Below, one piece after another: positions 43,634 to 45,745 of a stretch of 64,000 nucleotides of DNA. Origin of the DNA: Thermodesulfovibrionales bacterium. Its GTDB lineage: Bacteria; Nitrospirota; Thermodesulfovibrionia; Thermodesulfovibrionales; SM23-35. The DNA is taken from the NCBI GenBank assembly GCA_963715195.1, contig CAVQRT010000030.1, positions 192,001 to 256,000 on the forward strand, in the 5' to 3' direction. The notes below the pieces were generated by a model that was not told the origin of the DNA, made no database searches, and saw nothing but the letters and a program-made list of their open reading frames with translations. The translations under genes and the position numbers were made by a program. The first letter of the stretch is position 1; each line of letters starts with the position of its first letter.

Positions 43634-44042
43634 CGTTCCCACATATAGTTCCGGGTTCATGAAGTTTTGTCAGATGTTAAGGTATAATTCCATTCAACCC
43701 GTGTGCCTCCTTAGCCCGGTAGAATAGAGTACAGGTTCCCTAATTCCAACGAATGCGATTTCATAATCCCTTGATAATGAAGACTTTCCTTTAAATTTTC
43801 ATCGATTTGCAGATTCTTGATAATTGAGTATGTTTTGATATAGTTATGCCGGTTTGAATTTGAAACAGCGAGGAAGTTTATACCCGAAAAAAGCTTTTTT
43901 TATTACCGCACAATTACAGGATGTGTCCCAGTATATTCACGGTAGAACTGATTGAAAGGGACTGTGCCCGGGTTAAACGGGGGCCACTTCTTGAAGACAA
44001 CGTTGCATTCGAATAAGCGTCAAGTAAGAAAATAGGAGCTTC

Positions 44043-44588
44043 CTACAAAGCCATAAGAATCATCACCATCTGGCGGCCTTCCATTTTAGGCTGAATTTCG
44101 ACTTTTGCGATATCCGCCACTTCCAACACCAATCTGTTTAAAACCTTCGCCCCCAGTTCCTGGCGACTCATTTCTCGTCCTTTAAAACGCATTGTTACTT
44201 TAACCTTATCTCCATGCTCAATAAATTTCCGAGCACTCCGCTTCTTGAACTCGTAGTCATGGGTATCGATTAACGGGCGCATCCTGATTTCCTTGAGGGT
44301 TTGCGTCGCCTGTTTTTTTCTGGATTTTTGAAGTTTCTTGCTCTTGTCGAACTTGAACTTCCGGTAATCCATGATCTTACAGACCGGCGGATCAGCATTG
44401 GGGCTGATTTCCACAAGATCTAAATCTCTTTCCCTAGATAACTTCAAAGCAGATTCAATATCCATGATGCCGATTTGCCCTTCATCGGCAACGACTCGTA
44501 TCTGTTTGGCTTTAATCAGCCTGATCTGGTTGTTTATGCGGGTAAGATCAGCGACCCTGCCGGGCAATACTCGTCTTTGATTAGCTAT
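44043..44588 (-). CDS. infC: Translation initiation factor IF-3, probable AUA start
   Basis: RINNQI, LDLVEISPNADPPVCKIMDY, KEIRMRP, GDKVKV, EGRQM. AAGGAGG lies 8 nt before an in-frame ATA at 44588. Confidence 0.93.
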   Translation of the reverse strand: MANQRRVLPGRVADLTRINNQIRLIKAKQIRVVADEGQIGIMDIESALKLSRERDLDLVEISPNADPPVCKIMDYRKFKFDKSKKLQKSRKKQATQTLKEIRMRPLIDTHDYEFKKRSARKFIEHGDKVKVTMRFKGREMSRQELGAKVLNRLVLEVADIAKVEIQPKMEGRQMVMILMAL

Positions 44589-44725
44589 TGTGTATTCCTC
44601 CTTTTAGTTTGATATCCTGTGCGGGTAGAAGCACCGAACGGCCTATTCTATAGGCCCTGAAGGCGGCAATATCCGCAGTAACGTAAAACGTTAACAGAAA
44701 AAAAGTTTTTATTATTAGAATCTTA

Positions 44726-44920
44726 TCAAAATCTCCTACGCTTCTTAGCCTTCGCTCTTGTCTTACGAGCCTCTGCTCGTTTTCGTTTTTCTTTTATCGA
44801 AGGTTTTTCATAAAAACTTCTCATCTTGATTTCTTTGAGAAGTCCTTCAGTCTGAACTTTACGCTTCAGAATTTTGATAGCTTTTTCTATATCATTGCCG
44901 ACTACTCTTATCTCTATGAT
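44726..44920 (-). CDS. rpsU: 30S ribosomal protein S21 (missed by ORF track; no canonical start)
   Basis: IEIRVVGNDIEKAIKILKRKVQTEGLLKEIKMRSFYEKPSIKEKRKRAEARK...F*. Only ATT/ATC/ATA codons lie between the upstream in-frame TAA and the conserved N-terminus. Confidence 0.9.
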   Translation of the reverse strand: MIEIRVVGNDIEKAIKILKRKVQTEGLLKEIKMRSFYEKPSIKEKRKRAEARKTRAKAKKRRRF

Positions 44921-44923
44921 AAT

Positions 44924-45256
44924 TTATCTCCTGTCTCTTCCATAACCTGATCCCCTTCCCTGTCCGAGACCGCCCCTGCCTCGGCCGAAACCCCGTCCTT
45001 CCTTTGGCTGTTGAGGTCTTGCCTCATTGACGATCAAAGCACGGTCCATAAGTTTTGTGCCGTTCAGCTGTTCTATGGCTTTTTTAGCGTCGTCTGCGGA
45101 CGACATTTCAATAAAGCCAAAACCCTTGGAACGCCCCGTGTCGATATCAGTAATTATTTTTACCGATTCAACCTCTCCAATACCTGAGAAAATCTCGCGG
45201 AGAGATTCCTCTGTTGCACTGAAAGGGATACTTCCTACATACAGTTTCTTGCTCAT
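44924..45256 (-). CDS. RRM RNA-binding protein with Gly/Arg-rich tail
   Basis: RNP2 LYVGSI, RNP1 KGFGFIEM, VNEARP, RGG-rich C-terminus. Confidence 0.95.
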   Translation of the reverse strand: MSKKLYVGSIPFSATEESLREIFSGIGEVESVKIITDIDTGRSKGFGFIEMSSADDAKKAIEQLNGTKLMDRALIVNEARPQQPKEGRGFGRGRGGLGQGRGSGYGRDRR

Positions 45257-45436
45257 ACTTTAACCCCACTTGAAAGAATTAAGATTCCCTAACGCCTTAA
45301 AGCTTTGAGGCTTCTCTGACTTCAAAGGTAGGATACTATAGAATAACACTTCATAGATTTAAAAATCAGAAGAAAATAAATATGTCTGATCCAACGCTTT
45401 TGTTTTTTTGATATACATTTTTGCCGAAATAGGTAT

Positions 45437-45745
45437 ATGAATAAGGTCATTGTCCTTGAAGTCGTCGAATCTCATGGATGCAATAGTCGACGCCGGATTG
45501 GTGACAAATCCTATTTCGATGGGGCAGGCAATTTACTCACCGAACGAAGTCCGAAGAAAATCTGTGTGTTTGCCCTGAGCAACGCGGTAATGATGATTTT
45601 TACTGTCAGTGAAATGCTGTATGCAGGGGTTGACCCGAATACAATGCGTTTCAAGTGGACTCATTGTTTTGACGCAGGGCTGCAATGCGGTGGATGGGGA
45701 CGTATTGTTCTCGATCTGCATGTAGAAGATAGTAGGACAGCTTAA
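45437..45745 (+). CDS. Cys-rich hypothetical protein, possibly N-terminally truncated
   Basis: VVESHGCNS...FDGAGNLL...IC...CFDAGLQCGGWG. Confidence 0.55.
   Translation: MNKVIVLEVVESHGCNSRRRIGDKSYFDGAGNLLTERSPKKICVFALSNAVMMIFTVSEMLYAGVDPNTMRFKWTHCFDAGLQCGGWGRIVLDLHVEDSRTA

Follow-up and report, generated by a model that had tools for sequence, protein, structure and literature searches.

An accessory RRM-bS21-IF3 operon of Thermodesulfovibrionales whose S21 and IF3 genes appear to start at conserved AUA codons, candidate targets of IF3 discrimination

Initiation factor 3 (IF3) destabilises 30S complexes that assemble on non-canonical start codons, and the feedback on its own gene, infC, uses an AUU or AUC start (PMC5472188); the mechanism of this autoregulation is also described in PMC5499595. 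The same discrimination acts outside infC in Streptomyces, where the GTC start of sigR is repressed by IF3, an effect that sets SigR below its partner (PMC5472188). Paralogs of ribosomal protein bS21 have been proposed generally to replace bS21 on some subunits (PMC9976891), and one that alters ribosome function has been reported for Francisella tularensis (PMC13374519); rpsU of the Flavobacteriia is autoregulated via an extended Shine-Dalgarno (SD) sequence and sequestration of the anti-SD by bS21 (PMC9976891), and Anabaena variabilis possesses a cold-regulated rbpA1-rpsU gene cluster (Sato 1994, cited in PMC12232666). Here we describe an operon from a 64,000-nucleotide stretch of a Thermodesulfovibrionales genome (‘the window’: positions 192,001 to 256,000 of contig CAVQRT010000030.1, assembly GCA_963715195.1), in which known kinds of element are combined, namely IF3-metered non-canonical starts, bS21 paralogs and RRM-rpsU clusters, and whose pairing of an apparent AUA-start S21 gene with an IF3 gene adds to these. 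Three minus-strand genes lie at 44043-45256, in the order RRM-type RNA-binding protein, bS21 and IF3, just as a first-pass annotation of this DNA had laid them out, coordinates included. We lean towards reading them as an accessory operon in which S21 and IF3 are translated from conserved AUA starts, with their synthesis probably held down by IF3 discrimination. To our knowledge, very few genes besides infC use IF3-controlled non-canonical starts, sigR in Streptomyces being one.

What the locus shares with infC autoregulation (AUU in E. coli, AUC in Streptomyces) is that both the accessory and the housekeeping IF3 genes of this genome appear to start at AUA, behind a strong SD; unlike the classical case, the window IF3 is an extra gene that follows an RRM and an S21 gene instead of sitting in thrS-infC-rpmI-rplT, and it has a longer linker and family-specific residues. 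As with sigR, the conserved non-canonical start that follows a strong SD belongs to a gene that is not infC and that has an operon partner; but sigR encodes a sigma factor whose repression was demonstrated by IF3 overexpression and fidelity mutants (PMC5472188), whereas the gene described here encodes a ribosomal-protein paralog next to an IF3 paralog and is known from sequence alone. The Anabaena variabilis rbpA1-rpsU cluster likewise has an RRM gene followed directly by S21 (the stop-to-start distance is 6 nt here), to which our locus adds an IF3 gene and the AUA starts. With the bS21 paralog systems (Francisella tularensis, and the survey of McNutt et al. 2023) it has in common several rpsU genes per genome and a copy number that varies among relatives, but the available parts of these sources (PMC9976891, PMC13374519) mention neither a non-canonical start nor an adjacent IF3 gene, and the portion of the survey's lineage list that was examined does not name Nitrospirota (PMC9976891). 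As in the Flavobacteriia (PMC9976891), the S21 gene's own initiation region is here a candidate site of translation-level control; the special feature, however, is the start codon, since the 16S 3' end (...GGATCACCTCCTTT) carries a normal anti-SD and SD usage is ordinary. A literature search from which subscription journals were excluded turned up no description of either an S21 that starts at AUA or a bacterial IF3 paralog.

The bS21 paralog gene occupies 44726..44917 on the minus strand, 63 codons when counted from an ATA at 44917-44915, with ATC (44920-44918) and ATT (44923-44921) as alternative starts. Straight after the TAA stop of the RRM gene (44926-44924) the frame runs ATT, ATC, ATA, GAG ATA AGA GTA, and it ends at a TGA (44728-44726). 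The product belongs to the bS21 family on two profiles, PF01165 (63.5 bits against a cut-off of 27, profile positions 2-54 of 55) and TIGR00030 (55.7 bits against 28.95, positions 2-57 of 58), and no canonical start codon appears in the frame before the ATG at 44824, which is residue 32 if the ATA is residue 1; the first-pass annotation, which had found no ATG, GTG or TTG until residue ~32, was right in this. An AGGAG motif (44928..44932, minus strand), read directly as the SD of this gene, lies within the last RRM codons and precedes ATT, ATC and ATA by 4, 7 and 10 nt, respectively, the 7 nt before ATC being the distance that the annotation had given.

To place this frame among its relatives, we turned to 41 relatives and 57 family genomes, which yielded 63 accessory S21 genes. 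These share the N-terminus Glu/Asp-Ile-Lys/Arg-Val, and the codon before it is TTG in 35, ATA in 20, ATC in three, GTG in three, ATG in one and TCG in one. The ATA-type orthologues come from 20 genomes and 11 genera, and all 20 have ATA at codon 0, a TAA stop of the RRM gene lying 6 nt before it and a length of exactly 63 codons, with ‘AGGAGA TAA’ common to 19 of them. Codon -1 is ATC (12) or ATT (8), codon -2 varies freely (ATT, GTT, ACC, GCT, ACT or GTC, encoding four amino acids), and Ile at positions 2 and 9 is encoded by either ATA or ATT, apart from a single GTA at position 9. In 14 of the 20 the S21 frame lacks ATG, GTG and TTG throughout, yet the ratio of non-synonymous to synonymous substitution rates (dN/dS) comes to 0.10 for codons 2-31 and 0.09 for those that follow, and because such a frame is nonetheless held at a ratio of about 0.1 we conclude that the S21 protein is evidently made, from a non-canonical start and without a possible canonical one. 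The AUH codon (AUA, AUC or AUU) is thus kept among orthologues, so that neither a point mutation nor a pseudogene accounts for it. The first-pass annotation had named ATG or TTG in orthologues as the finding that would overturn its proposal: within the clade there is none, though among more distant relatives the window ATA does align with TTG, GTG or ATG, in 39 of the 40 non-AUH accessory genes.

In a maximum-likelihood tree the 20 ATA and three ATC genes group together (97/100) in a single clade surrounded by genes that start at TTG, a topology consistent with a single origin from TTG-start ancestors by one TTG-to-AUH change; the tree was built on 66 columns only, which leave its finer branching unresolved. 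The three ATC-start paralogs are stand-alone genes that have an SD but no upstream open reading frame (ORF), which implies de novo initiation at an AUH codon. Within the TTG-type clade, one locus (L158, G022:C169) shows TCG at the S21 start position, right after an in-frame TAA; either the canonical start was lost a second time, independently, or the consensus sequence is wrong here.

As to the exact codon, the S21 start is most likely the ATA, with the neighbouring ATC or ATT also possible. Position 2 of both TIGR00030 and PF01165 falls on the Glu, which puts position 1, the Met, on the ATA; this homology and the invariance of the codon favour ATA, and TTG-start relatives in the accessory S21 family commonly have an SD spacing of 9-10 nt. 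Genome-wide, however, AGGAG-to-ATG spacing peaks at 5-8 nt, with 10 nt in the tail, which favours ATC. The non-canonical AUH start put forward in the first-pass annotation stands, the likelier codon being ATA by homology and ATC by SD spacing. Public records reflect the same ambiguity in their own fashion: NCBI records of relatives hold 63-aa (MEIKV...) and 64-aa (MIEIRV...) S21 products, which imply non-canonical starts, gene callers outside the NCBI records give shortened products of 43-59 aa, and the public orthologue products as a whole disagree on the N-terminus (64, 63, 59, 54, 47, 44 and 43 aa).

The start-codon rule of this genome does not look generally relaxed, because non-canonical starts seem to be rare in it; the genome has one ordinary initiator tRNA and a normal anti-SD. 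Three CAU tRNAs are present, one with initiator features, and no AUA-reading initiator tRNA was found among the three. A genome-wide heuristic for AUH starts behind an SD, with coding-like extensions, returned 17 candidates, mostly noise, and missed infC owing to early TTG codons, so that it conveys a rough sense of rarity only; on that footing, non-canonical starts look rare. One purN-like ORF (IAVLRIGVIASGRGSNFQALIDA...; G000:C7:143093-143747, minus strand) has an ATA 5 nt after GGAGG and its first canonical start 87 codons downstream, and may be a further AUA-start gene of the genome.

In the assembly (2.81 Mb, completeness 97.8%, contamination 6.6%) we count four genes for S21 and three for IF3, and close relatives have 1-4 S21 copies per genome. 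The first-pass annotation had called for a search for second rpsU and infC copies, and both housekeeping genes were found outside the window operon: rpsU, with an ATG start (MPYVRVKE...) behind GGGAGGAGG, sits beside dnaG, and infC, with an ATA start behind AGGAGGTG, sits on contig C8 in thrS-infC-rpmI-rplT-pheS. Because the housekeeping copies lie elsewhere, the window S21 and IF3 are accessory copies, and the reading of the operon as an accessory module is supported by copy numbers and context alike. A further S21 copy follows another RRM gene and has a TTG start, and a stand-alone S21 on contig C6 is without a canonical start, reading AGGAGATGATCT ATT ATC GAG ATA AAA and closely preceded by an in-frame TGA. 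The third IF3 gene (G000:C16:11443-11985, plus strand) also has an ATA start, is 67% identical to the window IF3 and stands alone behind an FKBP-like ORF; contig C16 has a GC content of 41%, against ~46% for the large contigs, and this copy may come from the 6.6% contamination, although similar stand-alone copies are present in other Nitrospirota metagenome-assembled genomes (MAGs; L039-L044).

The accessory IF3 gene (44043..44588, minus strand) encodes 181 aa with both IF3 domains, counted from an ATA at 44588-44586. Its assignment to the family is given by TIGR00168 (211.6 bits, cut-off 60), IF3_N (94.5) and IF3_C (120.3), and the protein aligns over 164 residues (E=1.4e-45) to the solved 180-residue chain 8jsg_A, which we take to be E. 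coli IF3. Direct reading bears out the AAGGAGG (44597..44603, minus strand) that had been noted as the SD 8 nt before the in-frame ATA, and AAGGAG is invariant in 13/13 aligned IF3 loci. Six codons 5' of the ATA lies an in-frame TAA (44606-44604), with AAG GAG GAA TAC ACA and no start in between, and in two other loci (L167 and L170) the in-frame TAA comes two codons before the ATA. Relatives keep the ATA, save for a GTG in L045, and the downstream TTG of the window gene (44567) is not conserved, being ATG, TCG or CCG in others. Across the order, housekeeping infC mostly starts at ATA behind GGAGGTGA; an AUA start thus appears to be the norm of the lineage for infC, in keeping with the established feedback of IF3 on the non-canonical start of its own gene. 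Examined as conserved starts other than ATG, GTG or TTG behind an SD, the S21 and IF3 paralogs both qualify, in support of the earlier proposal that both genes begin at AUH codons (S21 ATA in 20/20, IF3 ATA conserved). That proposal was equally sound in placing this infC outside thrS-infC-rpmI-rplT: the genes ahead of the window copy are those for RRM and S21, a context that marks it as accessory and on which membership of the family does not depend.

The accessory IF3 shares 45% identity with the housekeeping copy, than which it has four more residues in the linker, and 50-57% with alphaproteobacterial IF3s. Three otherwise conserved sites are changed in all 24 accessory IF3s when set against 22 housekeeping and 72 alphaproteobacterial IF3s, giving Phe at the position of E. 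coli Tyr75, Arg at that of Lys97 and Ala in place of the C-terminal Pro. Since Phe at the Tyr75 position is natural in other IF3s (7/72 alphaproteobacterial sequences and the solved chain 5me0_Y), we rejected the idea that it is special by itself. The C-terminal Pro may be a fidelity site of IF3, although no passage to that effect was found in PMC5472188. The residue changes are only a lead towards possibly altered proofreading.

Among the 57 family genomes, ATA-type S21 and accessory IF3 are both present in 19 and both missing from 34, with S21 alone in one (G020, 85% complete) and IF3 alone in three (G004, G006 and G070); the full RRM-S21-IF3 triple occurs in 14 genomes. The two genes also co-occur unlinked, on different contigs in four genomes of one genus, and in G042 the accessory IF3 lies ~1.2 kb upstream. 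Presence is patchy within genera (e.g. 3/6, 1/7, 1/3), and S21 and IF3 are gained or lost together. The AUA-S21 and the extra IF3 are, then, co-inherited, although the genomes counted are related and hence not independent, and a single deletion would take out both genes in most of them.

Synthesising these findings, we propose a model for how the operon might work. A promoter-like site upstream of the RRM gene would drive an RRM-S21(-IF3) transcript, on which 30S subunits would bind the AGGAG in the RRM 3' end and start at the AUA (or the adjacent AUC) 6 nt past the RRM stop. Total IF3 activity, housekeeping and accessory together, would then reject part of the AUA initiation complexes, as it does on infC, so that output of both the S21 paralog and the extra IF3 would drop as IF3 climbs and the module would be self-limiting. 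We suggest that the S21 paralog might take the place of housekeeping bS21 in a share of the 30S subunits and, with the RRM protein, alter which mRNAs are initiated. Gating of S21 by IF3, which the first-pass annotation had proposed, is plausible on the analogy of established IF3 proofreading and the sigR precedent. The cold or stress induction that it had also raised would follow only by analogy with the cyanobacterial rbpA1-rpsU cluster and from the initiation-factor-to-ribosome ratio, which climbs in cold stress (PMC5499595).

Several observations weigh against this proposal. An AUA mRNA whose initiation region had been optimised showed no effect of a 10-fold IF3 excess in E. coli extracts for rich medium and a drop of only 20-25% for minimal medium; AUU, by contrast, dropped by >60% (PMC5499595). 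The AGGAG at the S21 gene fits ATC (7 nt) better than ATA (10 nt). Parts of the module can be separated: one locus (L123, G006:C22, ~1234-1350) keeps the RRM and accessory IF3 genes with an S21 that is internally deleted and frameshifted, its remnant reading TAA ATT ATT ATA GGG ATA ... and then passing out of frame, which could reflect either misassembly or a genuine loss of S21, and two genomes of the same genus (G001 and G002) have a stand-alone ATC-start S21 without an extra IF3. IF3 may, moreover, be transcribed on its own, as the 137-nt spacer between S21 and IF3 (44589..44725, minus strand) could be an internal promoter and leader: an alignment of 13 loci shows a conserved promoter-like pair (TGTTAAC/TGTTGAC ... 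GGATATTG), and a hairpin (GGCCTA-TAGAA-TAGGCC, ~44656-44640) has some compensatory changes, with RNAalifold on the 13 loci returning a weak consensus only (-7.0) and no strong fold. These conserved elements are not essential, because in one genus (L015) the spacer is only 15 nt long and the promoter-like pair and hairpin are absent. Expression, finally, has a weak hint in its favour, to be set against possible DNA carry-over in RNA libraries: in four RNA-library runs examined, contigs identical to the window cover 44598-44887, 44299-44584 and 44376-44562, and a relative's RNA-library contig spans the RRM 3' end, S21 and the IF3 5' end; being contigs, these give no strand, ends or level, and the stretches they leave uncovered are uninformative.

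The main rival, because the in-vitro data show little response of AUA to IF3, is that AUA is simply a weak start that fixes a low S21 output relative to the RRM protein, through translational coupling or through nutrient and ppGpp tuning and with no specific sensing of IF3, an account that we regard as possible but less probable. All non-AUG starts are strongly depressed by nutrient limitation and ppGpp (PMC5499595), the RRM stop lies at a fixed 6 nt before the ATA in every orthologue and the SD sits inside the RRM 3' end, as coupling would have it, and the wider S21 family already prefers a weak start, TTG, in 35 of 63 genes. Coupling is not required in the clade, however, given the three stand-alone ATC-start paralogs with no upstream ORF to couple to, and since IF3 overexpression lowers re-initiation in E. 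coli (PMC2268962), coupling and IF3 gating are not exclusive in any case; nor does a merely weak start explain the tight co-inheritance with an extra IF3 (19/20).

The continuity of the two frames might instead suggest that S21 needs no start codon of its own and is produced fused to the RRM protein, by read-through of the single in-frame TAA, for only this stop and three sense codons separate the genes in 20/20 orthologues. That we consider highly improbable: the SD before the AUH codons is conserved, no RRM gene precedes the stand-alone ATC-start paralogs, in many relatives with a TTG start the RRM stop either overlaps the start of S21 or falls in another frame, and no read-through signal was seen. 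More improbable still is a decaying pseudogene that has lost its start codon, a notion to which the internally deleted S21 of the G006 relative and the TCG of L158 might lend some colour; a dN/dS of 0.10 over 20 orthologues from 11 genera, a constant 63 codons and an invariant start region all speak against it. Going beyond IF3 discrimination at AUA, one could also imagine that RRM, AUA-bS21 and the changed IF3 form a co-inherited alternative initiation kit, in which the extra IF3 would proofread differently and license or meter AUA-start messages, its own and that of S21 included; we think this unlikely, if attractive.

The RRM gene itself (44924..45256, minus strand) has an ATG start and encodes 110 aa with a Gly/Arg-rich tail. 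Its product is an RRM protein by PF00076 (RRM_1; 88.2 bits against a cut-off of 20.7) and passes NF058537 (Rbp_regulator) marginally, at 101.7 bits against 100. An RRM gene lies directly 5' of S21 in 49 of the 63 accessory S21 loci, and the pairing is general in the accessory S21 loci of Thermodesulfovibrionales. Upstream, a consensus scan picks out the promoter-like TTTAAA-17-TATAGT at 45335..45363 (minus strand; 9/12 matches), whose second hexamer, together with the T-rich stretch preceding it, is kept in alignments of 7 and 19 orthologous loci. The 5' leader between this site and the RRM start (~75 nt; 45257..45334, minus strand) is conserved in sequence in 19 orthologous loci, for which RNAalifold gave no consensus fold; it contains a small 5' hairpin, CUUUG-AAGU-CAGAG, whose arms co-change in some relatives (CUCUA...UAGAG). 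An Rfam scan of 43800-45600 at E<=10 yielded two chance-level matches only, with none to the leader below E=8, and a terminator scan found none on the minus strand after IF3.

The operon is flanked by an aldo-keto-reductase-like ORF and a PhoU-like ORF, and a 102-aa ORF at 45437-45745 (plus strand) lies divergently between it and the PhoU-like gene. Genome-wide there are ~10-12 cold-shock-domain genes and four RRM genes, a large RNA-chaperone set that says nothing of when the operon is expressed; with the four S21 and three IF3 genes, the set of RNA and translation regulators is large for 2.8 Mb. The public loci nearest to that of the window belong to MAGs labelled Nitrospirae, Thermodesulfovibrionales or Candidatus Sulfobium, and the DNA runs that hold most of the stretch are labelled as estuary, marine sediment, sediment or seawater metagenomes.

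Taken as a whole, at least 23 genes for an S21 paralog, spread over 22 genomes, have kept what appears to be a start at AUA or AUC, gene callers assign at least five different N-termini to this paralog or miss the gene, and in 14 genomes this AUH-start S21 shares an operon with a second IF3 that apparently uses the same codon. If IF3 does meter the S21 paralog, ribosome heterogeneity, in the form of bS21 paralog swapping, would be tied directly to initiation-factor levels, and the operon would offer a natural system for probing the role of bacterial IF3 paralogs. Were the alternative initiation kit to prove true, the cell could switch a fraction of its ribosomes to another mode of initiation, with their composition wired to initiation-factor activity.

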